Counted from the first letter of the stretch, positions 26,941-46,517 are shown. The stretch is DNA of 64,000 nucleotides from Planctomycetota bacterium (GCA_017302815.1 JAFLCQ010000004.1:492-64491), one strand, 5' to 3'. The notes: generated by a model from the sequence alone, not told the origin. Numbers and translations: made by a program.

Positions 26941-27345
26941 GCGCGCTCACGGCCAATGTTGGTCGATGAATGGCGCAATGCTCGGCGCGTGGCGGGCATG
27001 TGGTGCGGACCACACAACGAAGTTGAGGCCTCGGTCATCCTGCAAGACCTTGGCCGCTGATCCACTGTGAGTCCGCCTACAGCGGCGGCAGTTCCCGTAG
27101 TGCTTATCTACTCGCTCTGCTACGGAGCTGAGCGCGCCCAGTCTCCATCACGTCATCGACGTGATGGCCGAGGGTCGCATTCGGTTCATGCGTGGGGCGT
27201 GATGTTCGCGCGGTGGACGAAGATCGCCGCGGAGTGAGTTCGTTGTCGTGCGACTGCGTGGGCATCTGCACGTGCGGATGCCGAGATGGAAGCGTCGTCG
27301 TTGAACCGTGGAACATCACTGCCGGATCAGAACCAGGAGATCAAC

Positions 27346-30016: not shown

Positions 30017-30453
30017 ACTCCAAGACCCAGCATCCCAAACTTATCCGGACCCCGCGTCCTTTCGTCCATCCCATCCCCAACTGCTTGGTCCTGCGGGACT
30101 ATTGCAGTGAGCATCTCGATGAGCGCATCCAGGTGGAGGCCACCGTCGGCGAGCGGAGGATCTACACGGCGTGCCAACGCCACACCAGGGAGGCCATCGA
30201 GGTCGACGTCACGACCATACGCATGGTGGATGTCGTCCTGATCACCGGAATCCCCATCGCCAAGTTCCTGTTCGTCAATCAGGGCATGAGGACGGCGCAT
30301 CTCACAGAAGGTCAGAGGGTTCGATTCTGCGCAACCTGCGGCGAGTATAGGTGCGGCTACGAACCGGATGAGACCTGTAGCGGACTGGGCTATATCGGCC
30401 CGGTCGTCATCCTCGATGCCGCGCCAGAAGGGGGCGTGCCGTCTACGCGATGA
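30013..30453 (+). CDS. Hypothetical Cys-containing protein (146 aa)
   Basis: ATGA overlap with the ParB-like stop. Contains CATCGEYRCGYEPDETC. Confidence 0.4.
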   Translation: MNSKTQHPKLIRTPRPFVHPIPNCLVLRDYCSEHLDERIQVEATVGERRIYTACQRHTREAIEVDVTTIRMVDVVLITGIPIAKFLFVNQGMRTAHLTEGQRVRFCATCGEYRCGYEPDETCSGLGYIGPVVILDAAPEGGVPSTR

Positions 30454-30477
30454 CGTCCAGATAAGCATCAACCGGTT

Positions 30478-31035
30478 TCACGTGGGCTGGTCCTGGGCCG
30501 CATCCAAGCTGAGATCCGTCAGCGCCGCTGTCAACCACGCTGGTAGGACCTGCCTCGGTACCAGCCCACTTGCCTGCCACGCCTTTGCCATGCATCGGCA
30601 TTCGTCTTTTGCACTCAGCAATGCTGCATCGCGCTGCCGTCGCAGCGCCGGACTGCGCGGACGGAAGCCTCGGCACCCGGCCAGGTAGACCTCCTCGGCT
30701 TCGCGCGCGATGGCGACGACGACATCGGCGGTGCGTTCGAGGTCGAGCAGCACCACCGCCGCGAATGTTGACGCTGGATCTGCTGCCCTGTCGGTCTTTC
30801 CACCAGTGCCGGCGACAAGTTGCGCCACTGCAGCGGCATCGGGGGGAGCTACAGCGACGTGCCCGCGCAGGTGGGCGAGATGGAGTCGGCCGTCGTCGTT
30901 CCAGACCTTGGTCACCCGCCACGTCTCGCCGGTCACGACGAGCCGGTAGGTTGTCGCCGTTGCAGGATTGGTGAAGGTGGTCACGGCCGGCGGCATGAGC
31001 ATCACCGGCCTACGCTGGCGAAGTGGGTCCGGCAA
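30478..31035 (-). CDS. Hypothetical protein (185 aa)
   Basis: ORF only. No family recognised. Confidence 0.3.
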   Translation of the reverse strand: MPDPLRQRRPVMLMPPAVTTFTNPATATTYRLVVTGETWRVTKVWNDDGRLHLAHLRGHVAVAPPDAAAVAQLVAGTGGKTDRAADPASTFAAVVLLDLERTADVVVAIAREAEEVYLAGCRGFRPRSPALRRQRDAALLSAKDECRCMAKAWQASGLVPRQVLPAWLTAALTDLSLDAAQDQPT

Positions 31036-31101
31036 GCCCTACGCTGCTGGTCGATGGCAGGCTTGTCCCAATGGGCTAGGTACCACGCTGCGCTGATCCC
31101 C

Positions 31102-31869
31102 ATGTTTGACACGTTCTCCGATCGCCTGCGTCAGATCATCTCCAACGCCAACGATGAGGCCGAGCGCGCCGGCAGCCCCAGCATCGACATCGATCACCTC
31201 GTCGCCGCGCTGTGCGCGTGGAAGGAGAGCGTGGCCTACGAGATGCTGCTGGCGCTGGGCGTGAAGCCGAAAGCGGTGATGAAGGCGGCACGCAGCCGCA
31301 TGTCGTCCGGGCACAATGCACAGCCTCGCACGCCGCTGCCCTTCACTGAAGCCGCCAAGGAAGCCATGCCCGCGGCGGTGGCAGAGGCGCGGGCTCTTCA
31401 GATGAGCTACACTGGCACCGAGCACCTGCTGCTCGCGATCATCACCATGTCTGCGGGCAAGGCCGATGCGCTGCTGCGCGTCGACCATGCTGATGCCGTC
31501 GCTGCGCTCACTGAGATCCTCACAGATATGCCCGTTCCTGCGGCGCCACGGTCTCAGACTGACGGGGCTGCCATCGCTGATCTCCGCCGGCGCCTCTCCA
31601 GCATCGACGTGCTTCTCGCCGCCAGTACATCCCTGGATCGCACCCTCCTTGATCGCGCCTTCGGTGCACTGGCCGGCGTCGACACCGAGGCTCTTCCGGC
31701 GATCCTCCAGCACCGCATCGAGCGCATCCTCCTGGCGATCAACGCCATCGCCGAGGAGTTCCCTGATGCCCGCGATCCCGCGAAACAGCTACCGGCGACG
31801 GCCCTGGTCGCCTACGCCTACCGACTCCAGCAACTCCGGCGCTTGGTCACCGAACTCGACGTGCAGTAG
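31102..31869 (+). CDS. Clp N-terminal repeat (Clp_N) domain protein without ATPase module
   Basis: MFDTFSDRLRQIISNANDEAERAGSPSIDIDHLVAAL and a second repeat FTEAAKEAMPAAVAEARALQMSYTGTEHLLLAII match the double Clp_N repeat of ClpA/B/C. No P-loop follows. Confidence 0.6.
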   Translation: MFDTFSDRLRQIISNANDEAERAGSPSIDIDHLVAALCAWKESVAYEMLLALGVKPKAVMKAARSRMSSGHNAQPRTPLPFTEAAKEAMPAAVAEARALQMSYTGTEHLLLAIITMSAGKADALLRVDHADAVAALTEILTDMPVPAAPRSQTDGAAIADLRRRLSSIDVLLAASTSLDRTLLDRAFGALAGVDTEALPAILQHRIERILLAINAIAEEFPDARDPAKQLPATALVAYAYRLQQLRRLVTELDVQ

Positions 31870-32007
31870 CTGCCAGATCGGACCCGGTCTGCGTGCCACC
31901 TCCGCACTCTCCTCAGCCGCCCCTGTGGCTGTCCTGGCCTCGAAGTGACAGCGTGAAGGACGACGGGGCAACGGGCCAACGGGACTTTCCTGTCCAGGTC
32001 GCACACC

Positions 32008-33093
32008 ATGATGCCGGACATGGCTGAGATTCCGCTAGTCGCGCACATCAACGAACTCATCGCTGAGGGCGTTCGCATCCGACGTGCTGGGATTCCGCGC
32101 GTGAGCCCAGCGCCGACCACGTCATGGGACTATGGCTACGCGGGCGAGCGGGAGCCCGAGCCGCATCGCTACGTCGAGTTCGATGCCGTTGCGTTGAAGC
32201 AATGGAGGAATGACATCAAGATGGTAGCTGCGGCAGCGATGCCTTCAGGCCACCATGTCATCGCCGATGCGCTCAGACTGGATGACCTCTATCACGATGA
32301 ACGTTTATTGGACGACGGAACAGCGCTACTACAGTCCTTGAAGCGCACAATCGAGCGTGGTCTGCTTGCTCCGACGCCGACTTCAGGAAGCGACACGCGA
32401 GCTGGAACCGTCGTGTACGATGACGGACTCCTGCGTCGTGTCCTCGTCGACGTCTATGACCGAGAGGGTGATGCGCCGCTGATGAACTACACCGTCTCGG
32501 GTGTCAACAGGGTCACCCTGATGCGCGCCATCCGCCGGCTGATGGATTTGGGATGGCTCGAAGCGGTGGATTGCAGTACCCGCGGCGGCATGGACTACGC
32601 GCCTCGGCGCGTCACCGCGGCAGGTTTAGATTGGCTCCAGGGGTCGCAGGCTCGGCCGTCAGGTTCCCAGGTGGTCAACCACTACCACGCTCCGGTTGCG
32701 CAGGGACAGCACGCGACCGTCGCCACGGTACACAACTCGCCTGGTGCGACTGTCACCGCCGCCTCCGGGGCTGCGACCGTCGAGCAGCGCATCCGCGTCC
32801 GCATCGAGCAGGTATCACAAGGTGACCGTGTCGTGGCCGCTGCCATCCAGCAAGTGGCTGACGCCATCGCCGCCAGTGCAGCGCTTGCTGATGGCCAGCG
32901 GGCTGAAGCCCAGGAGTTGCTGTTGGCCATTGCTGAGGAGTGCGCGAAGCCGCCTGCCGAACGCCAATCGGCAGCTCGCAGCAAAGGTCTCGCTGCTGGT
33001 ATGCGCGAGGCGCTCGGTCTTACAGCTGATGTTCTCCAGGTTTGGACGACGTGCTGGCCGAGCATTGCGCCAGTGCTTGGGATCATCGGATAG
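32008..33093 (+). CDS. Hypothetical protein (361 aa)
   Basis: ORF with a possible winged-helix segment (VTLMRAIRRLMDLGWLEAV). No family recognised. Confidence 0.4.
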   Translation: MMPDMAEIPLVAHINELIAEGVRIRRAGIPRVSPAPTTSWDYGYAGEREPEPHRYVEFDAVALKQWRNDIKMVAAAAMPSGHHVIADALRLDDLYHDERLLDDGTALLQSLKRTIERGLLAPTPTSGSDTRAGTVVYDDGLLRRVLVDVYDREGDAPLMNYTVSGVNRVTLMRAIRRLMDLGWLEAVDCSTRGGMDYAPRRVTAAGLDWLQGSQARPSGSQVVNHYHAPVAQGQHATVATVHNSPGATVTAASGAATVEQRIRVRIEQVSQGDRVVAAAIQQVADAIAASAALADGQRAEAQELLLAIAEECAKPPAERQSAARSKGLAAGMREALGLTADVLQVWTTCWPSIAPVLGIIG

Positions 33094-33170
33094 CCATCTG
33101 CTGTGGCTCGAACTACGCGCTCTCTTGGTCGATGCGTCGTTGCCCTAACGACCGTGCTGTCGCCGGCACG

Positions 33171-33890
33171 CTAATCCTTGTAGATCGGGGCCAGATCCTG
33201 CGGTAGATCCCGCGACGCGGGCCAGGACCGATCCACCTTCCGGGTCGTGGTCGGCAACTCGACAGGGGTCACGGTCGCTGTGAGCGACAAGGACAAGGAC
33301 GTTTCTCCGCGAGCGGAGATCGTCCCATCGTCCGCGATGGACTTGGGCACCTCGTAGAGCTTCACCGTCACTGCATCACCAGCAGCGAAGGCGGTTGCCT
33401 GCACAGTGACCGGGATCGTGATGCTCTCTCCCGGCGCGAGCGGTTGCTCCTTGGGGACGCTCGGTTGCACCGTGGCGGTGATCTCCGGCCGAGAGGCGGC
33501 TGCCCGCACGACGATCCCACCGAGCGGGAATGCGCGCGAGGATGTGTTCGTCACCACGATTGGGCACACCAGCGCCTCGACCGGGGTGAGCGTCGTGGCG
33601 TAGGTGACGAGGAAACTACCCTGCTTGGTTCGACCATCGCCGGATGTCAGGAGTCCGAGCTTGCTGGCCGGTCCAGCTCGTACCGCTTTCGTTGATACGA
33701 CATCCTCAGTTGTCGCGCCCGGCGACGTCACCGACACGATGCCCGGAACCGTTGGCTCTGCCGGCGCCGCTACCGTAGCTGCATAGGAGCGCTTGTCCGC
33801 CTGCTGGGCAGGCGGGTCGACGGGGGCTTGCCGATCCATGTCGCAGCCGGCGAGGCAGAGGATGACAATGGTCGCGGTAGCGATGCGCAC
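33171..33890 (-). CDS. Lipoprotein, beta-sandwich-like
   Basis: GTG at 33890 gives (M)RIATATIVILCLAGCD with lipobox LAGC. Thr/Val-rich strands follow. Confidence 0.5.
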   Translation of the reverse strand: MRIATATIVILCLAGCDMDRQAPVDPPAQQADKRSYAATVAAPAEPTVPGIVSVTSPGATTEDVVSTKAVRAGPASKLGLLTSGDGRTKQGSFLVTYATTLTPVEALVCPIVVTNTSSRAFPLGGIVVRAAASRPEITATVQPSVPKEQPLAPGESITIPVTVQATAFAAGDAVTVKLYEVPKSIADDGTISARGETSLSLSLTATVTPVELPTTTRKVDRSWPASRDLPQDLAPIYKD

Positions 33891-33984
33891 GGGTCGGATC
33901 TCCAAGAGCGCTGTAGCCTCGGTGGAGTCGCGGTCGAGGTCAACCGTCGAGTGGTGGCTGTGATGGGCGGGGCGCCAACCCCGA

Positions 33985-34332
33985 TCACCGCCGGCGTCGA
34001 CCGGGTGCAACGGGGCGCAGGCTGTCGAAGTCCAGGCCCGATACTATGGTATACGGCACCGTGCAGGACTGATGCTGCGGCCACTGCGCCGCGATGAACG
34101 CCTCCGCTGCCAGCCACTGCTGCGCGCGGAACGCTCGGTTCAGGCTGGCCCGCCGTCCAGTCCGCATCCGCATCTCGTCGCGTACGAGGTCCATGTCGAT
34201 GAAGTCGCGGTTACCCGACGGCATCGATACAGGGGTGGAGATGCTGCTGTAGGGCGTGAGATCGTCCCCGGTTCTCGCGATGTGGTCGCGGAGGACCTGC
34301 TCGGCAACTTCCAAGGACACCCGTCGCTGCAT
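33985..34332 (-). CDS. Hypothetical protein
   Basis: Internal ATG at 34332 (MQRRVSLEVAEQVLRDHIAR...). Weak. Confidence 0.3.
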   Translation of the reverse strand: MQRRVSLEVAEQVLRDHIARTGDDLTPYSSISTPVSMPSGNRDFIDMDLVRDEMRMRTGRRASLNRAFRAQQWLAAEAFIAAQWPQHQSCTVPYTIVSGLDFDSLRPVAPGRRRR

Positions 34333-34446
34333 GGAGCGGCAGCATCGAAGCGATGACGGGCTCGGCAAGGCGATGCCGAATGCTGGATCGCGATCCGGCA
34401 CCGGCACCGACCGGGTTGATCCAACAACCTGCCGTATGGGTGATCT

Positions 34447-36108
34447 ATGGCGTCCCCGACGGTGGACGTAGTGTTGATCACCATGGATCCGGCGGCACTG
34501 ATCGAGAAGAATACCCGGCGCAACCGCGTTCGTCGTGGGCGTCGTGGAGACGGCATCCTGGTCGGTATCGGGGATGCAGACCCGAACATCGATTATGCCT
34601 GTCCGGTGTGCGGCGACGCGCTACGCCAGAAACGGAGCTGTCTCGACAAGCCGTTCTTCGCGCACATCGGCGGCGATGGAACCTGCGCCGACGATGCCGT
34701 GCGCCATGCGGCAGCGGTGCGGGTGCTCGGGGATCTGGTTCACCATGCCGTGGCCGGCCGCCTGACGCTGCGGTTCGCGGGGCGGTGCATGGCCGGCCGA
34801 CATGGGGTCGACCAATGCCTCGACGTCCGCTCCGGCGACGTCATCCGCCGCGATGAGCACGGTCTGGCCATCTACCGCGATGGGGCGGCCATGGCCGTCC
34901 TGGTTGTCCATCAGGCGCATGAGCAGGCGGTCCATGCCGATGCGTTAGCGCGCTACGCCGTCGACGCGGATGAGGTCTTGGGGTGGGATGCCGATGCGGC
35001 CCTGGAAGCCTGTGGAAACGGTGGGAATGCGACGCTGGTCCTGGTCGCGACGTTGATGAGCGGCGGGGTGTCGTGCCCGACGTGCGCCAGGGAACGTGAG
35101 GCCGAGCAGCGGAAGGCCGACAAGGCCGCCGCCACCGAGGCCAGGGAACGGACGGAGCGGTGCCAAGCGTTCGCTGATGCCCTGATGCGCAGCGGGGGAC
35201 TGTTCGAGACAGGTTTCTGCGCCGCGCATCCGGATGTCCGCCGGACGATCGACATCAGCGGGCGCTACGATGGCATGGAGGTCGACGCCGTGCTCGATGG
35301 CGAGCGCTGGGACGTTGCCCTGACCCGAAAGAGACGGCTGGCGCTGGGGATTCTCCTGGTGCGGCCAGACGGCATGACCAATCCGGGCGACCTGGGCCAC
35401 CGGTGCCGCGATCCTGGGAACGCGCATTTCGTCGCCGTTCCGGAGGATGCCGAGGTCCAACCGGCGACCGGCGCATGGCCCACGAACACCTGGCACTTAC
35501 GGTCGGAGGGACGATGCCCACGCTGCGACGACCTGCCGCGGCTGGTTAAGCAGATCGACGCCGAGGAGGCCGCGTTCGCCACCCGCTTCGAGGTCGGCAA
35601 GCGCGAGATCCGGCCAGCCGACATCCGGACCGGGTTCAGGGCCGTGGTCGACGAGCGGCTACCCTGGTATCCGGCGGTGATCGAGACCGATGTGGACGCG
35701 GCCACGGCGGCGGCTGTAGAGCGGTTGCTGGCCGCGGCGGCCCGGGTGTGGCCGCCGTCGACGGCGGAGGCCAGACGTGCCTTGGAAACCAAGGCCCTGA
35801 CAGGCGATGTGAATCGGATGTGCGCCGGCTATGCCCGGAAGCATCTGGTGGTCGGCATGCCACCGAAGTCCGCGGCCGAGATTCACAGGGCGATCCACTA
35901 TCTTCTGGATCGTGGTGATGGCATGTCTCGGGCGGATCAGGCTGCCATCGAAGTCCATATCGCCAGCAGTATCGAGAGACTGGTCAAGATGGCGTGGGCG
36001 CTCTGGTCTGGTCATGAGAACCGAGCCAAGGCAGGACGCCAGATGCGGCAGGACGAGCAGGACATGGGACTGCGGCGCCGGTGGGGGCGGAGGAGGTCCG
36101 GCTGGTAA
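34447..36108 (+). CDS. CoiA-like zinc-ribbon/nuclease-like protein (553 aa)
   Basis: YACPVCGDALRQKRSCLDKPFFAHIGGDGTC resembles the CoiA N-terminal CxxC...FAH...C signature. Further CxxC pairs: CPTCARE and CPRCDD. Confidence 0.45.
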   Translation: MASPTVDVVLITMDPAALIEKNTRRNRVRRGRRGDGILVGIGDADPNIDYACPVCGDALRQKRSCLDKPFFAHIGGDGTCADDAVRHAAAVRVLGDLVHHAVAGRLTLRFAGRCMAGRHGVDQCLDVRSGDVIRRDEHGLAIYRDGAAMAVLVVHQAHEQAVHADALARYAVDADEVLGWDADAALEACGNGGNATLVLVATLMSGGVSCPTCAREREAEQRKADKAAATEARERTERCQAFADALMRSGGLFETGFCAAHPDVRRTIDISGRYDGMEVDAVLDGERWDVALTRKRRLALGILLVRPDGMTNPGDLGHRCRDPGNAHFVAVPEDAEVQPATGAWPTNTWHLRSEGRCPRCDDLPRLVKQIDAEEAAFATRFEVGKREIRPADIRTGFRAVVDERLPWYPAVIETDVDAATAAAVERLLAAAARVWPPSTAEARRALETKALTGDVNRMCAGYARKHLVVGMPPKSAAEIHRAIHYLLDRGDGMSRADQAAIEVHIASSIERLVKMAWALWSGHENRAKAGRQMRQDEQDMGLRRRWGRRRSGW

Positions 36109-36210
36109 CCGCTGCCCTTGGCCTATCGCAGGACGGGGCCGCCGCTGGATGCAGCGCCGGGTGCGCGTAGGACTGCCTCCGGCCGGCAGGATGCCGCCAC
36201 GAGGACCGCC

Positions 36211-37188
36211 ATGCCCACACCCCAACTCGGCCGTTTGCGGCGCATCGACGACCTGCGAAAGTATTGGGAGCGCGAAGACACGGATTTCACGCCGTGGCTC
36301 GCCAAGCCCGAGAATATCAAGCTCATCAGCGAGGCGACCGATCTGGATCTGGAAGTCGTGGCCGAGGAGAAGGATGTCGGCCCGTTCCGTGCTGACATCC
36401 TCTGCCGCGACACCCTCAGCGGTCATTGGGTCGTGGTGGAGAACCAGTTGGAGTGGACAGACCACACGCACCTCGGGCAGATCGTCACGTACGCCGCCGG
36501 TCTCGATGCGCGGGCCGTGGTGTGGATTTCATCCCGAATCACCCCCGAGCATCGGGCCGCGATCGACTGGCTGAACTCCATCGCATCAGCCAAGGTCGGG
36601 TTCTTCGCCCTCGAACTGGAACTGTGGGCCATCGAGGGGTACGACAAACCGGCTCCTCATTTCACGGTCGTGGCCAGGCCGAACGATTGGCAGCGCGCTG
36701 TGGCCGAGGCCGGCGAAGCCGCCGAACGCAGCGATCTGTCCGACCTCCGGAAGTCGTATGTGGAATACTGGACGGCATTCGCGGCGCTCTGCATGCAGCG
36801 CAAGACGCCGTTCAACATGCGGAAGCCCGGACCCTACCACAACACCGATGCATCCATCGGTCGGAGCGGGTTCACGATCTCGCCCCAGCTCTACCCTGAG
36901 TCGAAGTCCATCTGCGTGTCTCTGACCGTGCGCGGTGATCCACAGGGGACCGTGTTCAAGGCGATCATGGACCAACGATCCATGATCGAGCGCGACCTCG
37001 GTATGACGCTCGAATGGGATCAGAAGCCGGGCCGGGCGCAGAACTACATCACCTGCGCCAAGGACGTGACGGACGTCCTCGACAGGTCCGGATGGTCGTC
37101 CCAGCAGGCATGGATGGCCGACACCATGACCGCGTTCCATCGCGTATTCCAACCGATCGTGCGCGGCCTCGACATCGGTGACCAGTGA
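36211..37188 (+). CDS. DUF4268-family protein with N-terminal PD-(D/E)XK-like domain
   Basis: ATG at 36211. DLRKYWEREDTDFTPWLAKPENIKLISEATDLDLEVVAEEKDVGPFRADILCRD...VVVENQLEWTDHTHLGQIVTYAAGLDA...WISSRITPEHRAAIDWLN is the characteristic N-terminal block of DUF4268 proteins often embedded in type I R-M loci. Confidence 0.7.
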   Translation: MPTPQLGRLRRIDDLRKYWEREDTDFTPWLAKPENIKLISEATDLDLEVVAEEKDVGPFRADILCRDTLSGHWVVVENQLEWTDHTHLGQIVTYAAGLDARAVVWISSRITPEHRAAIDWLNSIASAKVGFFALELELWAIEGYDKPAPHFTVVARPNDWQRAVAEAGEAAERSDLSDLRKSYVEYWTAFAALCMQRKTPFNMRKPGPYHNTDASIGRSGFTISPQLYPESKSICVSLTVRGDPQGTVFKAIMDQRSMIERDLGMTLEWDQKPGRAQNYITCAKDVTDVLDRSGWSSQQAWMADTMTAFHRVFQPIVRGLDIGDQ

Positions 37189-37481
37189 TGGCCGGCGCCC
37201 GCAAGCCGTCCACGGCCGAAGAGACGGCGGCCAATCGCCACAACGGCTCTGCCCAGGTGAAAGCTACGCTAGGGCCAGCGAAGTCCCTGGAGCCCTACCA
37301 AGCCGCAGCCAAGGCCCCAAATTTCTCGTTCTTCATCTGGTCGGTGGCCAATCTACTGCGCGGCGATTACAAGCAGTCTGATTTCAGCAAGGTCATCCTA
37401 CCATTCACGTCACTGCGTTGCTTCATTTGCGCGTTAAAATCCACAAAGCAGCTGGAGGGAACCAATGATTCCGACTATTGA
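37188..37481 (+). pseudogene. hsdM: Truncated N-terminal stub of a type I R-M methyltransferase (hsdM-like)
   Basis: FSFFIWSVANLLRGDYKQSDFSKVILPFTSLR matches the HsdM N-terminal domain motif. Similarity stops near 37425, exactly where base composition switches to AT-richer DNA. The reading frame then ends after unrelated residues. No methyltransferase domain anywhere downstream. Confidence 0.6.
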
Positions 37482-40400
37482 TTTCAGCAAAGTTCGGGCG
37501 ATCGATGGAGATCAGCAGAAAGGGTTCGAGGAATTAGTCTGCCAGTTATTTAATGATCCGCAGCGTCCAACCGCTATTCGCAGGATTGAAGGAAGCGGAG
37601 GTGATGGTGGAGTTGAGTTGATTGAGATCGATGCCAAGGGAACTGCGATTTCCGGATGGCAGGCGAAATGCTTCTTCAAGGTCGATAACGCGCAATGGAT
37701 GCAGATTTACAAGTCTATTATCACGGTACTGAAGGTGCATCCCAGCCTGACCTCGTACACTATCTGTCTTCCAATCGACCTTACCGGGGCAAAAAATGGC
37801 AAAAAAGGAAGAAGAATCAAAGGCCAGTGGGGAAAGTGGCAGGAGGTTCTTAGAAAAATCACGAAGGGAAAGCCAAGGGGGATCGTTCGCTTGCTGACAA
37901 GAAAAGACCTTGTCAGTTCCCTTCTGGAAAAGGACGGCCAGATCCCTGGATTCATCAGTTATTGGTTCGGTGAAGGTGTCCTTGATCAAAAATGGTGGTC
38001 CTCCCACAGAGATCGAACCCGCGCAGCGTTCCATTGGAGTTATGATCCATCGTTGTCGGTCTGGACGCCGCTTCGGGCCGCCTTAGACGCCTGGGCGGAG
38101 ACGGCCACTTGGCGAAAAAGCGTCGTCTCTCTTTCCTCCAGTCTTCAAAACGCCATCAATTCAACGTGTGCACTGCTCGTTTCAACCGACAGCAAGGTCA
38201 TACGGGCGATTACAGACCTGAAATCTCTCGGAAACAGAATTGAACAGATGGTCAGTCGACAGAGTTCAGGAGACAGTCCCTCTGCGTATGTCGATCTATG
38301 TTCAGAAATTGTTGAAGTGATTGAATATGCCAGAGACTTTGGTGATGATTACAAAGTAAGGTGCTACAATCAGTGTCTTGAGCGGTGCACTACGATCGCA
38401 TCAGCATTTATGGAGAAAAACCCCCATGCCGTGCATATATCGTCCAACAAGAAGTTGTTGATTATCTCCGGTGGTTCAGGTACGGGGAAGAGTCACCATG
38501 TGGCTGCCTTCGCGGATGCAGAGTGCGTCGCTTCACAAACAGGGGTTGGTGCAACGGTCGTGCTGACTGCGTCCAAGGGCAACGAGAGACGCAGTCTTGA
38601 TCTTCTGAACGGAGTTTGCGATGGCTGTTCTTGGAGTCAGGATCTTGATGGTCTGCTCACGGCCCTGTCGTGTGAAGCCGCTTTGAGAGGTGGATACGCC
38701 GTTCTCATGATCGATGCGCTCAACGAAGCGGCTTATTGGCGAGAATGGCCGGAAGCGCTCGCTCTTCTGTTGGCGAGGATCAAGATTACCCCTCGTGTCC
38801 GTATCGTCATTACGCTTCGTCCAGAATATCAAGACGCCATATGCAAGACAATCGCACAAGATCCAGCAGTGGCCCGTGTCTTCCACCGAGGCTTTCGGGG
38901 ACAAGCCGATCGCGCCATCGACGCCTACATGGATCACTACCGCATCTCCCGGCCAGCGACCGTGGCGCTCCGAGAGTTAGCCGATCATCCACTTTTCCTC
39001 AAGTTGTTCTGTATGGCCTTCGCAGGCCGCTCCATAGCAGCTAGTGATGTATGCAATTCCCTCTTTGGGATCGTCGGACTCATCGATCTCTGGATCGAAT
39101 GGCTTGAAGAACGGCTCGCGGAGAAATGTGACGTCGATAAGAAAGCGAAAATTGCACGACGTTCCATTGAGGCTCTCGCTTCGTTGATGATGCGACAGGG
39201 CAGGGAGCATGTGGAGCGGGACCTAGTCTCGACCGAGTTGCAGCGTCTGCATCCTACAACCACACATCAGAAAAGTCTGCTAGCCTTCCTTTTGGGGGAA
39301 TGCGTGATTGAGGAGTACCTCGCTCTGATTGGGTCGCAGGAAGTCGATTGCATCCGCTTTTCGTTTCAACGACTCACAGAACTGACTATTTCGCGGATCC
39401 TGGTCGGTAACTGGACCAAGGCTGGTGATTGTGTCTCGGATACAACACTGCCGCATCTCCTGGACGGCAATCGCGCGGAGGGGGGCAATCGACTGTCGCT
39501 TCCTGGATGTCTGGACATCCTCACTCTGCTTTTTTCCGAGAAATTCTCTACTGAGATATTTGAGGTGATGCCGCAGATTGGGTGCCCAGCCACGCAGATG
39601 GACTGGTATGTAGGTCCACCGATCACAGCGATGGATGCCGCTTTGGCGGCGGGGATAACGAGCCGGTCACATCGGTCACTGACCGCTGCATTCAGAACAT
39701 GGCTCGACTCACGATTGAAAGACGGTGATCTGCTGGTGTGGAATGAAGTCATCCGCAGCGCATGTTACGAGAAGCACCCACTAAGTGCGACGACCTGGCT
39801 TCATCCCCACCTGCATGTCATGCCGGTTTTGAAGCGTGATGCGTATTGGTCGGTTCCACTTGGAAATCTGTACGATCCGGTTCGGAAAGACAGGTACTCA
39901 CATCGACCAGTAGGCATGTATGATCCTCGGGTTGGGCATTCGGTCGTCAAAGAACTCCTGGGATGGATCGAGGGACTTAGCCCAACCACCCTTCAAAGCA
40001 TCAATACTGGTGCTATCGGAGAGGTGGCGCTGGTCTTGTGCTGGTTCTTCACCTCAAGTCATCGTTTCCTGCGGGACCGGTCCTCAATGGCCCTCGCTAA
40101 GGTCCTGCTGCATCACCCCGGGTTGTTTGCCGATGTGACCCGGCTCTCATCCACCTGCAATGATGTTTACGTCATTGAGCGGGTGCTCGCAGCGCTGTAT
40201 GGCGCCATGCTGCGCAACGCTGCTCTCCGGCACGATGACATCCTGTCCTGGATCCAAGCCAACCATGCCTCAAGAACGTGGTCGAGTGATGTGGTCATAC
40301 GTGACTACTGCCTGTCGATTGAAGCCTTCTGTCGCTTGCGAAGTGGTCTTCCGCCCGGATCAACCCTCTCCTTCCCGAAGCTACCAAGCATCGATTTTAA

Positions 40401-41982
40401 AAAGCTGAAGAGCCGCAAGCATCTCGATGCGAAGGTCAGAAAATTTGAAAAGACAACTGCGCAACGGACAAGCATCGAAGAGATCAACCGCTCCCTTACC
40501 TGCCAAGCTGGTGACTTCACCAACTACTGCCTCGGTGACACGGACAAATTCACACAGCATCTACGCACGAAGGCTCCTCCTGCCATACGGCCTAAACTCA
40601 CCGAGCTGTCGAACGAAGCTCTTGCGGTGCTGAAAAATATGCTCTCAGAAACAAGATTAAAGAGCATTACCAGAAGCAAAAAGTTAGATGCGTTTCAGGA
40701 GGCATTGGATTATCTCCATGCGAAGAACGGGGTATTGAAGGACGCCCTGATGGTATCGTCCGATATCGTCCAGAGGTGGATGATGACCGATATCATGCGT
40801 CAATATACCGAAGCCGGACCGGTTATTTCAAAAATCGATGTCTACGATGCGACCTGGAACTCAGGAGGGCGAGAGAGCCATAAGGCAGAACGCTTGGGGA
40901 AGAAGTATCAGTGGATCTCGCTTAGATCGCTCCTGTCTCGACTCTGCGACAACTACTGGCAAAGAAATGGATATGGAAGCCGGGCCACGTGGGAGGTGGC
41001 GCCGCCTCCGTACGAATTCGGCATGCGGGAAATTGATTGCAGCCTCTCCCATGAAGCGGTTCATCCGCAGACTGATAGCGAAGGTGGGGAGTCCTCGTCA
41101 CTCGGTTTCTGGTGGTCGGGGATGACGTTTGACGAGTCCATCCTGCAGGGAACCGCGTTAGCGGATGAATGGCGACGCAATGCTGGTTGCTGCTTGGTCA
41201 AACGGTGGACTCCCGTGCGGCAGGAGTCCAGGCACACGCCTCCACAGGTTGTGCTGTCGCAACATGGGAATTCAAATGGGGAATTGATTGGAGATAACGG
41301 TGTCGCCTTGAAGCGGATGGAATTTGCCATCGCCTCGTTCCTAGTGAAGGAAGCCAATGTTTCCGATGTCCTCGAAACTCTGGGTTCGTGTAGCTTCATG
41401 AATCGCGACCTTTTCCGATGGTATCAGCAGATGCCTCAATGGATTGGTGAATGGCCATGGCATCCTGCTCTGGCTGAGAACGATGAGTCCGCCCGCATAA
41501 CGAAAAACCGTGCCACCAGAGATCAGGGTATTCTCTGTATTCCCACGACCTATGACCTTCTCCATGAGCCTGGATATGACTGCTCTCTTTCGGAGAGTTT
41601 TTCTGTCGATCTTCCCTGCCAAAGTCTGATCCGTGACGGTTCGCTCACGTGGAGTGGATATCCCGGCGAGTACGTGCATGACGACCTGGTTGTTATCTCG
41701 GACCCCGCACTACGCAATGGAGCCGGACCTCGCGGATTGGTGATGCACGAAGAGTTCCTGCGAGGTTACTTGATAAAGAATCGACAGTCTCTAATCACTA
41801 TCGGTATTGCCGAGTGGTGGTATGGAACCGAGGAGGCCGGACGAAATGTGGCTTGGGGAGTGACCTGCCTTGCCAATGCGATGATGGCCAATGGAAGAAA
41901 AGTCGGATATGCCCAACAATGGGCATTGCTAACTAACGGAGGCCGCGAAGAACTTGTAAAACGAATTGCTTGGAATCGGTAA
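37465..41982 (+). CDS. Avs-like antiviral STAND NTPase with N-terminal Mrr-like PD-(D/E)XK nuclease (1505 aa)
   Basis: RBS GGAGGG 7 nt before the ATG. N-terminus GSGGDGGVELIEID...GWQAKCF resembles the Mrr_cat D-E-QxK core. Walker A GGSGTGKS at 38470-38493; Walker B VLMIDALNEA from 38701. About 1000-aa C-terminal region without recognisable repeats. Markedly lower G+C than its flanks. Confidence 0.65.
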   Translation: MIPTIDFSKVRAIDGDQQKGFEELVCQLFNDPQRPTAIRRIEGSGGDGGVELIEIDAKGTAISGWQAKCFFKVDNAQWMQIYKSIITVLKVHPSLTSYTICLPIDLTGAKNGKKGRRIKGQWGKWQEVLRKITKGKPRGIVRLLTRKDLVSSLLEKDGQIPGFISYWFGEGVLDQKWWSSHRDRTRAAFHWSYDPSLSVWTPLRAALDAWAETATWRKSVVSLSSSLQNAINSTCALLVSTDSKVIRAITDLKSLGNRIEQMVSRQSSGDSPSAYVDLCSEIVEVIEYARDFGDDYKVRCYNQCLERCTTIASAFMEKNPHAVHISSNKKLLIISGGSGTGKSHHVAAFADAECVASQTGVGATVVLTASKGNERRSLDLLNGVCDGCSWSQDLDGLLTALSCEAALRGGYAVLMIDALNEAAYWREWPEALALLLARIKITPRVRIVITLRPEYQDAICKTIAQDPAVARVFHRGFRGQADRAIDAYMDHYRISRPATVALRELADHPLFLKLFCMAFAGRSIAASDVCNSLFGIVGLIDLWIEWLEERLAEKCDVDKKAKIARRSIEALASLMMRQGREHVERDLVSTELQRLHPTTTHQKSLLAFLLGECVIEEYLALIGSQEVDCIRFSFQRLTELTISRILVGNWTKAGDCVSDTTLPHLLDGNRAEGGNRLSLPGCLDILTLLFSEKFSTEIFEVMPQIGCPATQMDWYVGPPITAMDAALAAGITSRSHRSLTAAFRTWLDSRLKDGDLLVWNEVIRSACYEKHPLSATTWLHPHLHVMPVLKRDAYWSVPLGNLYDPVRKDRYSHRPVGMYDPRVGHSVVKELLGWIEGLSPTTLQSINTGAIGEVALVLCWFFTSSHRFLRDRSSMALAKVLLHHPGLFADVTRLSSTCNDVYVIERVLAALYGAMLRNAALRHDDILSWIQANHASRTWSSDVVIRDYCLSIEAFCRLRSGLPPGSTLSFPKLPSIDFKKLKSRKHLDAKVRKFEKTTAQRTSIEEINRSLTCQAGDFTNYCLGDTDKFTQHLRTKAPPAIRPKLTELSNEALAVLKNMLSETRLKSITRSKKLDAFQEALDYLHAKNGVLKDALMVSSDIVQRWMMTDIMRQYTEAGPVISKIDVYDATWNSGGRESHKAERLGKKYQWISLRSLLSRLCDNYWQRNGYGSRATWEVAPPPYEFGMREIDCSLSHEAVHPQTDSEGGESSSLGFWWSGMTFDESILQGTALADEWRRNAGCCLVKRWTPVRQESRHTPPQVVLSQHGNSNGELIGDNGVALKRMEFAIASFLVKEANVSDVLETLGSCSFMNRDLFRWYQQMPQWIGEWPWHPALAENDESARITKNRATRDQGILCIPTTYDLLHEPGYDCSLSESFSVDLPCQSLIRDGSLTWSGYPGEYVHDDLVVISDPALRNGAGPRGLVMHEEFLRGYLIKNRQSLITIGIAEWWYGTEEAGRNVAWGVTCLANAMMANGRKVGYAQQWALLTNGGREELVKRIAWNR

Positions 41983-42441
41983 CCCGTTGATCAGTCATGT
42001 GAAAATCTATTCGTTTTCCAAAATTAACGTGCACCACCGGTCAAGACTGGCGCGGCTGGCCATCTAACATATCCGGAGAGGCGTCAGATCAGATGATGGG
42101 ATCTGTGTAGATGGTTACCCATTCCGGCGCAGGCGTTGCGGTGGGCGGCGGCCAGGGAGCCATTGAACAGCCAATAGCCTACGTCTTTGCCGAACGCGAT
42201 CTCCTCGTCAGCTCAGGCCTTTGCCTGGGCCGGTCCTAGGCAGCAGCAAACCGACCGTTTTGGACGACTAGGATGCAGATGCGGCGATCCTGGTCGCGGA
42301 TAAGCTAGGAAGCGCAGGCGGGGTCCGCGGTCATGCGTGAGCGCGAAAGAAGAACCAGCCTTGCTCTCGCTGCTGAGAATCGGTTGATGGACACAGGATT
42401 AGGAACGAGGAGATTATTCTTGTGCGATATACACGGGTGGC

Positions 42442-43326
42442 CTACGAAGCCGGAAATCTATCGTTGAAAACCATGTCCCAATACCGGTGCGCTGTCTCCT
42501 GGTCGCGGCTGAGTTCAGCCGCGAGCGCACGTTCGGCCTTGTCCAAGGCGGTCGCGGCATGTTCGGTCGCCAACCTGGCCTTTGGCCCTGAATCGGCCGC
42601 CTGAACGCGGCCGGAGACGCCCATCGGATCGTTAATCGCGCGGCATCCCCGATGTCGCAGGGTTCTGAACGCGGCAATGAGGCACTCCTGATAACTTTTG
42701 ACCCCGGAAAACGTCCGTTCGCTGGCAAAAAGAATCTCCATGTGGAAGGATGAGATGGGGGTGCGCGGACGGCGGCAATCGCGCCAAAATTTCAAGATTT
42801 GGATGCAGGCCGCGAACTTGTGCCCGCTGCTGGCGTGGGCTTCCTCGATGAGGACGCCGTGCGCCTCTGGTGATGTAGGCATCCAATCCCCTGCCGCCGA
42901 CGGGATTAGGAAGAGAGGCCGATTCACGCCCTTGGCGGGATGCATGCCTTGGAAAATTGCCGGCACCACGTCAACGTCCCCGTCATCGAAACGGCAAACG
43001 ACGGCTTGGCCGTCCCGATTGCTGTCGGTCTTCGGGAAGCGCGTTCCGAGGGCGCCCCGAACGCGATTCAGCATGGTTGTACCGGAAACGTACCCATTCC
43101 CCCAACGTGCCGATTCGCGGGTAAATACCGCAAGCAGGTCCATGTCGCTGATTCCGCGAACGGCGCTACCGCGGGAATAGCTCCCGATCCGGCGGACGCC
43201 CTTGATTCCGCGAGCGGACCTCAAGCAGGCGTCGATTTCCGCTGCATGGCGAGACTTCGCCGTGAGTTCAGCCGCGGTGGGTTGGATCCTCCGTATGAGG
43301 GATTGGAAGCGGTCGGCGATCGACAC
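42442..43326 (-). CDS. SMODS/CD-NTase-like nucleotidyltransferase, paralog C (last gene of operon)
   Basis: Pol-beta NTase signature RIGSYSRGSAVRGISDMDLL plus third carboxylate in DGDVDVVPA. C-terminal tail YWDMVFNDRFP is shared with the two paralogs. Confidence 0.65.
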   Translation of the reverse strand: MSIADRFQSLIRRIQPTAAELTAKSRHAAEIDACLRSARGIKGVRRIGSYSRGSAVRGISDMDLLAVFTRESARWGNGYVSGTTMLNRVRGALGTRFPKTDSNRDGQAVVCRFDDGDVDVVPAIFQGMHPAKGVNRPLFLIPSAAGDWMPTSPEAHGVLIEEAHASSGHKFAACIQILKFWRDCRRPRTPISSFHMEILFASERTFSGVKSYQECLIAAFRTLRHRGCRAINDPMGVSGRVQAADSGPKARLATEHAATALDKAERALAAELSRDQETAHRYWDMVFNDRFPAS

Positions 43327-43333
43327 GGGCTGG

Positions 43334-44335
43334 TCAACCGACTACCTTGGCCGCTTCGGCCACCATCTGCTCGACTGAAAAAGCCGCTCGGCGTTCCAAT
43401 TTGTTCCGCATCGCGTTGTACACCGAGTCGAAAACCAGCGGGCTGCTGCGCCGGTGCTCAAATATCTCGTCCTGGATCTGCCTCGAACGGGCCGCCAGCG
43501 TGGCCTCGTCGAGACCGGCGAGGGCCTCCGCCCAGACGCGCTCCAAGGCGTCCTTGATGCGTTGGGACCGGTCACCGGCGGCGCGGTTCTCCCTGAAATT
43601 CCTGATGCCCAACAAGAGCAGCGGGGCTGCCGGCGCAAGGCTCGCCAGGATGAGCGTCTTGGCGTCGAAGCCCTTCGTGACGGGAATGAGGACGATCGCG
43701 AGCGCCAGGATGATGGTGCAGGCGAGGACAGTGTTGGCGTACCTGCGCCGGATGCACATGTCGTATGCGCAGTTCTCCCGCTGGCAGACGATCCGCCCGA
43801 ACCGCTCCGGGATACGATCGACTGCGGGCGAATACCAGTTTTCCAGTCCCTGCTTCGACGGCGCGATCCCGAACCGGGCCAATACCCAGGACGCGCCCCT
43901 GATCGCAGCGGACACCGGTTTTCCAAGCACCGACCACACCGTTCGGCCCGGTACGTCCGGGGAGACGGCGGCGTACGCGTCGGCCAGTGAGACGACCGCC
44001 TCCGGATCGGGTCGACGCCCGATTTTAACCGGGTTCCACTCGATGCCCAGGACGTAGGCGTCGAAGGCCTCCTGAATCCTGGCCGAATCCTCGCGCATCT
44101 TCTGCAAGGCCGGGGCGATGAGCAGGAGATCGAGGACCGCGAACGCGAATCCCCAAATGGCCAGGTAGGGCTTGGGACTTGGGTCGAGCCAAAGCCAGAC
44201 GCTCCCAGCGAGAGCGACTGGGCCGGCGACGAACATCTGGAGACCGAACAGGCGCTTCGCCGCAGTGTAGCCGTGGCGCTGGGCGGAGAGCCAAGTGAGC
44301 GGGAGAGTCTCGTTCTGGCGGGATGCGATGGGCAT
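43334..44335 (-). CDS. Four-TM effector, S-4TM-like (SMODS-associated)
   Basis: TM pairs LFGLQMFVAGPVALAGSVWLWL / YLAIWGFAFAVLDLLLIAPAL and VLACTIILALAIVLIPV / LILASLAPAAPLLLLGI. Between them lies the soluble segment ARIQEAFDAYVLGIEWNP. Embedded between NTase genes with 3-nt and 7-nt gaps. Confidence 0.55.
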   Translation of the reverse strand: MPIASRQNETLPLTWLSAQRHGYTAAKRLFGLQMFVAGPVALAGSVWLWLDPSPKPYLAIWGFAFAVLDLLLIAPALQKMREDSARIQEAFDAYVLGIEWNPVKIGRRPDPEAVVSLADAYAAVSPDVPGRTVWSVLGKPVSAAIRGASWVLARFGIAPSKQGLENWYSPAVDRIPERFGRIVCQRENCAYDMCIRRRYANTVLACTIILALAIVLIPVTKGFDAKTLILASLAPAAPLLLLGIRNFRENRAAGDRSQRIKDALERVWAEALAGLDEATLAARSRQIQDEIFEHRRSSPLVFDSVYNAMRNKLERRAAFSVEQMVAEAAKVVG

Positions 44336-44338
44336 GAG

Positions 44339-45211
44339 CTAATAATAGTAAGTCGGGAACTCGTAGTTATAGACGAGACGCCACCAGTCGAACGCTTCCG
44401 AGACGTTGCTCGCCTCGGCGGCGGCCCGCGCCTTCTCGGCACGCCCCAAGGCGGTTCCCAGCTTGGACAGCGCATCCGTCCGTTGATCGGCGGTCTTGCA
44501 GGCCCGGATCAGCCCCGACACTCCCATCGGGTCCTGCATGTCGGCAAGGCCGACGTCAGACAGGAGCTTCAACACTCGTTTGACGTCCATATCGTAAATA
44601 ATCGCCTTCTCACCCTCGGCGTACTTGGCGACCCGTAGTTCCAGATAGAAGCTGGAGACGGGCACGTTGCAGAAATATTTCCAAGCCTTGATGAACCTGA
44701 CGAGGGGCTTGACCTTCCCGCCGAGTCGGCCGTCGACGTCCGCCACGTATGCGTTGTGAGCATCCGGGCTGGCGCGCATCCACCCGCCAGCGCAGTCCGC
44801 GATGTCGTAGACCTTGCGGTCGCGCTCGTCCCCGATGTAGTGGGCCGGGACTACTTCGGTCCGGTCTGCGGCCGTGCCTCCGAAGGGGACGCAGACCGCC
44901 GGGCAATCGACCCGGACGCCCGTGTTCGGGAACCTCGCGTCCAGCGCTTCTCGGATTTTTCGCAAGGAGTAGTCCGAATTGGACGACAGCTTGTCCCCAG
45001 GGATGCTCGCGAGGTAATCGACGTCACTGTAGCCGGAAATGCTCGTGCCGTTCCCGAACGAGCCGATTCGCGCGAACCTCCGGAGCCCGAAATTGTCTTT
45101 CAGGCACGCCTCGATGGAGGCCCGGTGTGAACTGGCCGCCGCCGACTCCGAATCGGTTGGCGTCAGGCGGGAGAGAAAATCGCGGAAACCCTCGTCGATA
45201 GTTCTTGGCAT
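44339..45211 (-). CDS. SMODS/CD-NTase-like nucleotidyltransferase, paralog B
   Basis: RIGSFGNGTSISGYSDVDYL. The third acidic position reads DRTEVVPA (Glu instead of Asp). C-terminal tail WWRLVYNYEFP. Confidence 0.65.
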   Translation of the reverse strand: MPRTIDEGFRDFLSRLTPTDSESAAASSHRASIEACLKDNFGLRRFARIGSFGNGTSISGYSDVDYLASIPGDKLSSNSDYSLRKIREALDARFPNTGVRVDCPAVCVPFGGTAADRTEVVPAHYIGDERDRKVYDIADCAGGWMRASPDAHNAYVADVDGRLGGKVKPLVRFIKAWKYFCNVPVSSFYLELRVAKYAEGEKAIIYDMDVKRVLKLLSDVGLADMQDPMGVSGLIRACKTADQRTDALSKLGTALGRAEKARAAAEASNVSEAFDWWRLVYNYEFPTYYY

Positions 45212-45220
45212 AGATGTGCG

Positions 45221-46078
45221 TTATCCGAAGGTCGGGAACGGGTCCCCGAACACGGCGCGCCATGATCGGACGGCGTCCGCTTCGTTCCCTTGACGACCGG
45301 CGTACCACGCGTCCCTCGCGCCGTCCCTGGCTTTCTCAAGGCGGTCGACTGCTTGGTCCCTGTCGGACTGGGACAAGTAGGAATCCGCGTACCCGAGCCG
45401 GTTCCACAGGCTCGACTTGGCGAGCGCCGACGCCTTGTCGAAGAACTGGAAGACGCTCCACGGCAGGTCGTCCAGGGACGAGGTGAGCGCCTTGAGCGCC
45501 ATGACCTCGATGTGGTAGGACTGGAGGTAGTCGCTGTGGCCCTTGTTCCAAGCCTTGGCCATCTTCACGATCTTGCGGAAGTTCCCGCCACAGGTCGACG
45601 CGGCGTGATCGATGTCGTCGCCGTGGTCCTTTGGGTTCGTCGAGATCCAGTTGCCCGACGAAGCGTCGGGAATGTCGTAGTGGGTCACGGCCCCGGCGCC
45701 GTTTATGCACTGGGCTGCGGGGACGATGTCGACGTTGGGCCACGAATCGTAATAGAGGGTGACGGCCTGGCCGTTCTTCCGGACGTTGGTCTTGTCTTCG
45801 CCGAGCGCGTCCCGCACGTCTTGGAGCAGGTCCTTCGGGCTCTTCCCCTTGATGTGCTTCCCGTAGTGGAGGGCGACCATGACGTCGACGTCCGCGTGCT
45901 TCTTGATCGCCGTGAACCTTGGGATGGAGCCGGAGGGGAACGCCTCCAGTACCTCGAACTTCTTCTTCATCAGGCCGACGATGTGGTCTTTGCGGGCGTT
46001 GGCGTCGCTGCGGCGGTCGCCGTCCAGGTTGATGGCGTCGAAGTAGGCTGAGAATGCGGAATCCACCGTGAGCGCCAT
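45221..46078 (-). CDS. SMODS/CD-NTase-like nucleotidyltransferase, paralog A (first gene of operon)
   Basis: PSGSIPRFTAIKKHADVDVMV, NVDIVPA, C-terminal tail SWRAVFGDPFP. Confidence 0.65.
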   Translation of the reverse strand: MALTVDSAFSAYFDAINLDGDRRSDANARKDHIVGLMKKKFEVLEAFPSGSIPRFTAIKKHADVDVMVALHYGKHIKGKSPKDLLQDVRDALGEDKTNVRKNGQAVTLYYDSWPNVDIVPAAQCINGAGAVTHYDIPDASSGNWISTNPKDHGDDIDHAASTCGGNFRKIVKMAKAWNKGHSDYLQSYHIEVMALKALTSSLDDLPWSVFQFFDKASALAKSSLWNRLGYADSYLSQSDRDQAVDRLEKARDGARDAWYAGRQGNEADAVRSWRAVFGDPFPTFG

Positions 46079-46157
46079 ATGGGTGTCTGTTACTGGTCCC
46101 CGTGCCGCCGTCCAGGCTGGGGGCTGTCTATCTTTGGGGCTGGAACTGGCGCCAACC

Positions 46158-46517
46158 TTAACGACCGGCGGACGCCTTGATCTGGGCCCAGACGCGGCGC
46201 CAGGATTCCTGGGGCAGCTTGGCTAGTCTGCAGATCGCGTAGCACTCTAGCACTTGCGTCACCTCCTGTCCGCTGGGGTCAACGGCTTGCGTCGTAAATA
46301 CTGACATTGCAAAGGCTCGGACACCAACCCTGAGCCATTTTGCCATACTGTAGGTCGTGAGCATGGCGCATGGCAGGGGTGCAGCGGTTCTTGTCCGATA
46401 AGACCACGATGCGTCGCGACCGCGATCCCTCGCGCTCTGCACCATCTGGACCCACGAGGCGTTGGACTCGGCCTGTGGCGACGAGCCAGACATGAATGGA
46501 TGTGATCTCATGCTCAT
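46158..46517 (-). CDS. Doubtful ORF (119 aa) abutting the tauE stop
   Basis: Start codon directly follows the tauE stop. Lower G+C than its flanks. No family recognised; may be a remnant or non-coding. Confidence 0.2.
   Translation of the reverse strand: MSMRSHPFMSGSSPQAESNASWVQMVQSARDRGRDASWSYRTRTAAPLPCAMLTTYSMAKWLRVGVRAFAMSVFTTQAVDPSGQEVTQVLECYAICRLAKLPQESWRRVWAQIKASAGR

Follow-up and report, generated by a model that had tools for sequence, protein, structure and literature searches.

A mobile four-gene cassette with three predicted CD-NTase cyclases and a single S_4TM effector in a Planctomycetota genome

Type I CBASS (antiphage signalling systems based on cyclic oligonucleotides) are defined as two-gene operons of a cGAS/DncV-like nucleotidyltransferase (CD-NTase) and an effector (bioRxiv 10.1101/2023.05.21.541620). 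What, then, might an operon do in which three such cyclases surround one effector? A gene cluster of this kind lies on the minus strand of a 64,000-nucleotide stretch of the metagenome-assembled genome of a Planctomycetota bacterium (GCA_017302815.1, JAFLCQ010000004.1:492-64491; hereafter the window, to which coordinates refer unless another contig is named). The first-pass annotation, made from the sequence alone, had described it as an operon of four minus-strand genes in the order nucleotidyltransferase (NTase) A, NTase B, four-transmembrane (4TM) protein and NTase C, separated by 9, 3 and 7 nt, and the open reading frame (ORF) coordinates agree with this description, the effector gene beginning 3 nt after cyclase B. 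Judged from its sequence, the module is best classed as type I CBASS, with two cyclases beyond the usual one. The reading that we favour, to which we give about an even chance, is that the three cyclases are independent infection sensors converging on one pore-forming S_4TM effector, in a mobile type I CBASS cassette that acts by abortive infection. The features of the cassette are as follows.

42436..46212, minus strand: the mobile cassette as a whole (leader, cyclases A and B, S_4TM effector, cyclase C), delimited as the blastn homology block shared with metagenome contig L001
46079..46212, minus strand: conserved 134-nt leader 5' of cyclase A, presumed promoter/regulatory region, within the block shared with L001
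45221..46078, minus strand: cyclase A, CD-NTase of 285 aa, putative accessory cyclase (Pfam SMODS, PADLOC PDLC00823, match to Pseudomonas aeruginosa CdnD)
44339..45211, minus strand: cyclase B, CD-NTase of 290 aa, canonical S_4TM partner (PADLOC PDLC00776, B-clade homologues)
43334..44335, minus strand: S_4TM effector of 333 aa with 2+2 transmembrane (TM) helices, putatively pore-forming or membrane-disrupting (Pfam PF18159, PADLOC PDLC00721)
43853..43951, minus strand: lineage-specific 33-aa insertion of the effector, residues ~129-161, GRTVWSVLGKPVSAAIRGASWVLARFGIAPSKQ (comparison within the S_4TM alignment)
42442..43326, minus strand: cyclase C, CD-NTase of 294 aa with a GTG start, putative accessory cyclase 3' of the effector (Pfam SMODS, PADLOC, AlphaFold2 (AF2) model)

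Within the bounds set by homology (42436-46212) the cassette consists of these four genes only, and the long overlapping ORFs in other frames are an ordinary by-product of its ~63% G+C. The gap between the neighbouring TauE-family gene and cyclase A measures 439 nt (46079-46517) and includes a 119-aa ORF on the minus strand (46158-46517); only ~134 nt of it (46079-46212) is common to the related L001 cassette.

Three cyclases and one effector

Profile searches of the kind proposed in the first-pass annotation returned three SMODS proteins and one S_4TM protein, and PADLOC agreed. All three NTases exceeded the gathering score of Pfam SMODS (PF18144; 1.8e-17 for A, 3.2e-12 for B and 6.4e-13 for C), and PADLOC cyclase models matched them end to end: PDLC00823 for A (324 bits, residues 1-285 of 285), PDLC00776 for B (406 bits) and, more weakly, PDLC00776 for C (183 bits). 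The NCBIfam model CBASS_cyclase_b gave 110-157 bits for A, B and C, under its 200-bit cut-off. A sequence search of solved structures matched P. aeruginosa CdnD over the full length of each protein (E = 3e-26 for A, 8.5e-13 for B and 4.5e-9 for C), and the AF2 model of C (predicted local distance difference test score (pLDDT) 93.7) aligned with CdnD at a template modelling (TM) score of 0.84 (root-mean-square deviation 2.9 Å, E = 1e-19), followed by CdnC, CdnB, CdnE, CdnG and cGAS, which places C in the CD-NTase fold. Hydropathy analysis showed no hydrophobic segment in any of the three NTases.

The motifs on which the three proteins had originally been recognised are all present, namely the Pol-beta signature (GSIPRFTAIKKHADVD, GSFGNGTSISGYSDVD and GSYSRGSAVRGISDMD), a third acidic residue in a (D/E)-(V/I)-VPA strand (VDIVPA in A, TEVVPA in B and VDVVPA in C) and a shared C-terminal tail, W-x-x-V-[FY]-x-x-x-FP. 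The active-site motifs of A (GS...DVD...VDIVPA) and C (GS...DMD...VDVVPA) are intact, and those of B (GSFGNG...SDVDY...TE[VI]VPA) are common to the entire B clade. MNT-type, aminoglycoside-type and poly(A)-polymerase-type NTases were considered and rejected, their Pfam matches being weak and sub-threshold whereas the CD-NTase matches are full length; the concern that the proteins might be MNT-type antitoxins or aminoglycoside NTases thereby falls away. Taken together, the profile and structure matches confirm A, B and C as full-length CD-NTase/SMODS cyclases with intact catalytic motifs, and A and C are predicted to be catalytically competent.

In the A-type cyclases the C-terminus is a conserved ...FP(T/A)(F/Y)G whose last residue is glycine (45221-45229 in A). 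A terminal glycine is typical of type II CBASS CD-NTases that are conjugated by Cap2; no Cap2-like gene lies in the cassette.

The fourth protein, which is identical to NCBI protein J0M02_01395, matched Pfam S_4TM (PF18159, E = 2.1e-72, 244 bits) and the PADLOC 4TM effector model PDLC00721 (278 bits), and it keeps the residues that are invariant in the S_4TM family alignment. Hydropathy places its helices at approximately residues 29-50, 55-78, 198-220 and 225-247, with a soluble part of ~120 aa between TM2 and TM3, and the AF2 model (pLDDT 88.7) agrees with this 2+2 layout. The layout proposed in the first-pass annotation therefore stands, while its soluble tail, put at roughly 100 aa, is shortened to ~85 aa. 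The alternative of an unrelated transporter was set aside, since S_4TM was the only family matched and the transporter matches from Foldseek were non-significant (E >= 0.28, TM score ~0.2). No match to the effector was found in phage records or IMG/VR.

In terms of class, each of the three cyclases carries the Pol-beta site of a CD-NTase (G-S ... D-x-D ... D/E), the adjacent effector belongs to a known CD-NTase-associated family (S_4TM), and no Cap2/Cap3 E1-E2-JAB, HORMA/TRIP13 or type IV genes occur within the cassette, all of which is as expected of type I CBASS. The module departs from the two-gene layout of one CD-NTase and one effector in having three CD-NTases per effector, and its effector, which shows the 2+2 helices and conserved motifs of S_4TM, departs from that family by the 33-aa insertion. 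Panoptes systems, composed of an mCpol synthase with an S-2TM-beta or CARF/SAVED-2TM effector, differ in both components from the SMODS and S_4TM proteins found here. Automated classifiers would still assign the locus to type I CBASS.

Cyclase lineages and movement of the cassette

Where the three cyclases come from was examined in 80 S_4TM loci gathered from species-representative genomes, in which every cyclase ORF was scored; the loci were found by an alignment-based contig search, the same search with a single effector protein giving no match. In ~55 of these genomes a B-type enzyme is the sole cyclase and lies directly upstream of S_4TM (47-72% identical to B, mostly 59-71%), which makes B the canonical S_4TM partner. 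C-type enzymes are the sole cyclase beside S_4TM at three of the loci (L037, L070, L091) and at ~23 metagenome loci, 15 of which are complete clusters. The A type was found alone with S_4TM at one locus (L038, 50% identical to A), and at five others (L042, L044, L046, L050, L059) the sole cyclase has its best match in A, at only ~31%. The A family is nevertheless large (603 homologue matches), its usual neighbour being another effector family of ~256 aa (PADLOC 4TM PDLC00719) that Pfam does not recognise; an A-type enzyme is the sole cyclase beside such an effector in L096.

Partners of the PDLC00719 type were located at L089 3462-4241, L093 4854-5633 and L096 4869-5633 (PADLOC 305 bits), and a further SMODS gene often lies upstream of them. 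One protein of this type occurs on at least 24 contigs, beside a serine recombinase and a PemK/ribbon-helix-helix toxin-antitoxin pair.

Mutual identity among A, B and C is 24-31%. Since they are this divergent and belong to three deep clades that each function alone in other operons, the operon was assembled by recruitment from three lineages and not by duplication. Recent tandem duplication was rejected on the same figures, B being 60-70% identical to cyclases of other phyla whereas the three window proteins are 24-31% identical to each other. The first-pass annotation had taken the three for paralogs of one family; the shared motifs and tail on which this rested hold good, but recent paralogs they are not.

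It had also suggested that B, with glutamate in place of aspartate at the third metal ligand, may be catalytically altered. This glutamate is present in every B-like cyclase sampled (T/H-E-[IV]-[VT]-P-A), including the ~55 sole cyclases beside S_4TM, while the A-like and C-like enzymes have aspartate at this position, and B is the most constrained gene of the cassette (ratio of non-synonymous to synonymous substitution rates, dN/dS, 0.06). The suggestion was accordingly abandoned, as was the idea of B as an altered or decoy enzyme. On this distribution the glutamate is a clade trait, compatible with B being the only cyclase of a system.

A search of gene neighbourhoods, which the first-pass annotation had recommended, found the order A-B-4TM-C conserved in other lineages. 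It recurs in the JGI metagenome contigs L001-L003 and the ENA run contig L179 (A 92%, B 97%, TM protein 84% and C 84% identical) and in the NCBI assembly GCA_965190125.1 (locus L088; A 67%, B 71% and TM protein 52%, with C, cut off by the end of the contig, 59% identical over its first 58 residues), and L007, whose contig is cut upstream, retains B (72%), 4TM (50%) and C (58%). The order is thus found in at least two other lineages, at protein identities of 84-97% and 51-71%. Compared with L001, dN/dS values of 0.18 (A), 0.06 (B), 0.17 (TM protein) and 0.12 (C) show that all four genes are under purifying selection.

The comparison with L001 also delimits the cassette. Blastn gave one alignment of 3,779 nt at 88.3% identity (window 46212-42436 = L001 6129-9900), which starts 134 nt upstream of A, ends 6 nt beyond C and breaks off sharply on either side, with sliding-window identity collapsing beyond 42436 and 46212. 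In the leader region identity is 94% over 46142-45993, and homology is gone farther upstream. The flanks are unrelated, consisting of an integrase and toxin-antitoxin-like genes in L001 and of Avs2 and a TauE-family gene in the window. Since homology ends where the cassette ends and the flanks are unrelated, the four genes are shown to travel as one 3.8-kb cassette. Identity to L001 is 93-95% over A and B versus 78-87% over the effector and C, and the synonymous rate (dS) is ~0.22 for A and B versus 0.50-0.73 for the TM protein and C. This difference between the two halves shows that the cassette is itself a mosaic and suggests that recombination exchanges operon halves.

How unusual, then, is more than one cyclase per effector? 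Complete S_4TM-anchored clusters in the species-representative genomes comprised 50 with one cyclase and four with two (plus three at contig ends), and complete C-clade-anchored clusters in metagenomes, retrieved with a 9-sequence alignment, comprised 15 with one and 11 with two. Seven of the 11 have the effector between the cyclases, three have both cyclases ahead of it and one has a different 4TM family. No further three-cyclase operon was present among these S_4TM- and C-clade-anchored clusters. Two-cyclase 4TM operons are therefore fairly common, at ~7% of S_4TM loci and ~40% of C-clade loci. Their combinations include C with B, C with A-like, B with a second B-type enzyme (B') and B with other cyclases, the extra cyclase stands before or after the effector, and the catalytic motifs of the extra cyclases are kept in all. 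Such variety fits interchangeable sensor modules.

A cultured example is the conjugative plasmid pJ349-116 of Arthrobacter sp. J3.49 (L178 = NC_019339.1 73138-75730), which encodes an S-4TM effector together with two cyclases, a B-like one (40% identical to B) and a second that is divergent. Both cyclases bear only the label 'nucleotidyltransferase' in RefSeq, and because annotation says no more than this the class of operons with extra cyclases is easily overlooked. Being carried by a cultured strain, the plasmid operon is a tractable model. At another locus (L092 2-3337) a large cyclase of another clade (PDLC00780) and a small E2-CBASS protein are followed by a C-like cyclase and an S_4TM effector. 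This hybrid layout is that of two systems side by side or, alternatively, of a two-cyclase 4TM operon with a type II-like regulator attached to it.

How three cyclases might serve one effector

In the mechanism that we favour, a B-type CD-NTase with S_4TM, a widespread pair, would form the core of the cassette. Recruits from two further deep clades, A (upstream) and C (downstream), were added to it. The four genes would be co-transcribed from the conserved leader, whose function as a promoter is presumed, and no cyclase would be active before sensing the infection cue particular to it. Any one of the three would then make a cyclic oligonucleotide recognised by the single S_4TM effector, which would permeabilise the inner membrane and so abort the infection. 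Co-transcription, independent sensing with distinct triggers, a shared or cross-read nucleotide and membrane disruption are the steps that we infer. With three sensors and one executioner, more kinds of phage would be recognised, and a phage would need several simultaneous escape mutations. The protection given by phage escape mutations extends only to CD-NTases that are closely related (bioRxiv 10.1101/2023.05.21.541620), on which ground a stack of divergent cyclases would be expected to broaden detection and make escape harder. Intact active sites, purifying selection, clades that are autonomous elsewhere and partners that combine freely make the three-sensor model the best fit to the data.

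Several points weigh against it. A promoter and terminator scan gave nothing above shuffled expectation, leaving the operon call unsupported by it, and no sigma-70-like consensus site was found in the leader (46079..46212). No solved relative of the effector was found by sequence or fold (best Foldseek E = 0.28), and hence no S_4TM ligand site is defined. The effector is closer to B-partnered effectors (35-41% identity) than to A-partnered (32%) or C-partnered ones (28-31%), so that its reading of A or C signals is conjectural. With a single effector cluster at 50% identity, the three-cyclase form is rare, and its advantage may be narrow.

The remaining point is the 33-aa insertion between TM2 and TM3, which occurs in 6 of the 129 S_4TM sequences sampled, exactly those from A-B-4TM-C loci, and is absent from 121 other S_4TM proteins and from the sampled effectors of one-cyclase and two-cyclase loci. 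A phmmer search of 1.84 billion cluster representatives matched 1,510 S_4TM clusters; among the best 150 of these, only the 84% relative aligns unbroken, the other 149 being split around the insertion, and the next best match is 41% identical. AF2 models the insertion as a low-confidence amphipathic helix (139-154). By these comparisons the three-cyclase lineage forms one rare sub-family, marked by an effector variant of its own. The insertion is the one observation that a simple three-sensor model leaves unexplained, and, being private to this lineage, it hints at more than simple convergence.

It is the insertion, as a possible added regulatory surface in three-cyclase effectors alone, that lends some substance to a different account, in which one extra cyclase constitutively makes a nucleotide that restrains or primes the effector, so that its removal by a sponge or nuclease brings death, or in which one paralog is a decoy for anti-CBASS proteins. 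Panoptes offers a precedent, its constitutive synthase and TM effector acting against sponges such as Acb2 (PMC12657218), and C-type enzymes stand in the place of a 'second' cyclase with unusual frequency (11 of 26 complete clusters). Yet the mCpol and S-2TM-beta proteins of Panoptes are both absent from the cassette, two-cyclase operons lack the insertion, and A- and C-types also serve as sole cyclases beside 4TM effectors, implying ordinary activating signalling; we consider this account unlikely. A bolder form of it, that the cassette is a self-guarded or logic-gated CBASS whose insertion-bearing effector reads the standing or distinct nucleotide of one CD-NTase together with the alarm, with phage sponges or nucleases able to overcome ordinary CBASS as triggers, and that supernumerary-cyclase CBASS are a widespread unnamed subtype with a logic of their own, is likewise doubtful in our judgement.

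The tight, conserved gene order and spacing, the matched protein lengths and the shared C-terminal tail could instead reflect a hetero-oligomeric synthase, in which A, B and C form one complex that alone makes the signal, or makes a mixed or longer oligonucleotide. Each clade is, however, the only cyclase in many operons, so that none needs the others, partner combinations vary freely between loci, and the differing dS of the A-B and TM-C halves runs counter to a tightly co-evolving complex, all of which makes such a complex improbable. Were either a complex or a guard cyclase to prove true, it would be a new signalling logic for CBASS. That the cassette is evolutionary debris, three type I CBASS side by side of which two lost their effectors and left neutral passenger cyclases, would suit its position in a defence islet that accumulates systems (Avs2 and PDC-S11 lie next to it) and the three different clades of its cyclases, but is very improbable given the catalytic residues kept in all three, dN/dS of 0.12-0.18 for A and C, an order retained in different genomic contexts even where protein identity has fallen to 51-71%, gaps of 3-9 nt with no space for decayed effector genes, and movement as a unit.

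As a natural coupling of three divergent cyclases to one effector, the operon offers a test of whether bacteria use several sensors together to broaden detection and hinder escape, and also of whether one 4TM effector reads the signals of several enzyme clades. The architecture is conserved, selectable and experimentally tractable, and bears both on how CD-NTases sense phage and on how effectors read their signals.

Genomic setting and known systems

The cassette stands in a small defence islet. Convergent to it is an Avs2-like gene (37465-41982, 1,505 aa; PADLOC Avs2 615 bits, below the NCBIfam cut-off), in line with the Avs-like neighbour reported in the first-pass annotation, and directly before that lies a candidate defence gene of the PDC-S11 type (36118-37188; PADLOC 352 bits; DUF4268). 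The restriction-modification (R-M) remnant also reported there could not be substantiated, no R-M domain being detected in the neighbouring ORFs scanned; the neighbours identified are Avs2 and PDC-S11. Because its G+C is 53%, compared with ~67% in the surrounding genome, the Avs2 region looks recently acquired. The other flank of the cassette carries the gene of a TauE-family membrane protein, beyond which ORF translations were read as a putative molybdenum-cofactor gene cluster.

Farther out, window 27286-36108, where G+C is lower (61-66%), contains large ORFs that matched no family, the exceptions being a P-loop protein of the MCM type (27286-29235) and one with a Clp_N domain (30820-31869), and no R-M domains were seen in the ORFs tested. 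This part of the window may belong to an integrated element or an extended defence island.

All component families of the cassette were already known, and what appears new is the three-cyclase arrangement and not a principle. The first-pass annotation had regarded three cyclases with one effector as an atypical module not known to be characterised, and in keeping with this no account of CBASS operons with several cyclases, and no catalogued subtype with this gene order, was found in the full-text literature searched, where an earlier passing mention in large comparative surveys is possible.

A close functional reference by architecture is the CdnD12-4TM operon, which gives E. coli strong defence (bioRxiv 10.1101/2023.05.21.541620); like the B-4TM pair of the window, it has a CD-NTase directly upstream of a four-helix effector and no ancillary genes, whereas the window adds two intact CD-NTases of other clades, one on each side of B-4TM, and the effector insertion. 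The two-cyclase S_4TM operons (pJ349-116; a Terriglobia metagenome-assembled genome, L009; Poribacteria, L053 and L058; numerous peat and soil contigs) share the same clades and place intact extra cyclases around one 4TM effector, but the window has three cyclases and their effectors are without the insertion. Of the solved structures, P. aeruginosa CdnD (PDB 6P82, 6P8U, 6P8J; type III CBASS) is the nearest to A, B and C over their full length, although identity is only ~21% and CdnD is associated with HORMA/TRIP13 regulation and the NucC nuclease, none of which occurs in the cassette.

Panoptes, in which the mCpol enzyme OptS, a constitutive cyclic-nucleotide synthase, together with the S-2TM-beta protein OptE guards CBASS against sponges such as Acb2, is often encoded beside CBASS and works by an inhibitory logic (PMC12657218). 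It too combines a nucleotide synthase with a TM effector as a second signalling layer near CBASS, but differs in synthase fold, effector family and logic, and the profile searches run gave no homologous component in the window. Lastly, VvCdnG09-CapV-Cap5, a type I CBASS with two effectors (bioRxiv 10.1101/2023.05.21.541620), likewise breaks the one-to-one rule by multiplying one component, and the window cassette would be its mirror image, with one sensor and two executioners there and three sensors and one executioner here.

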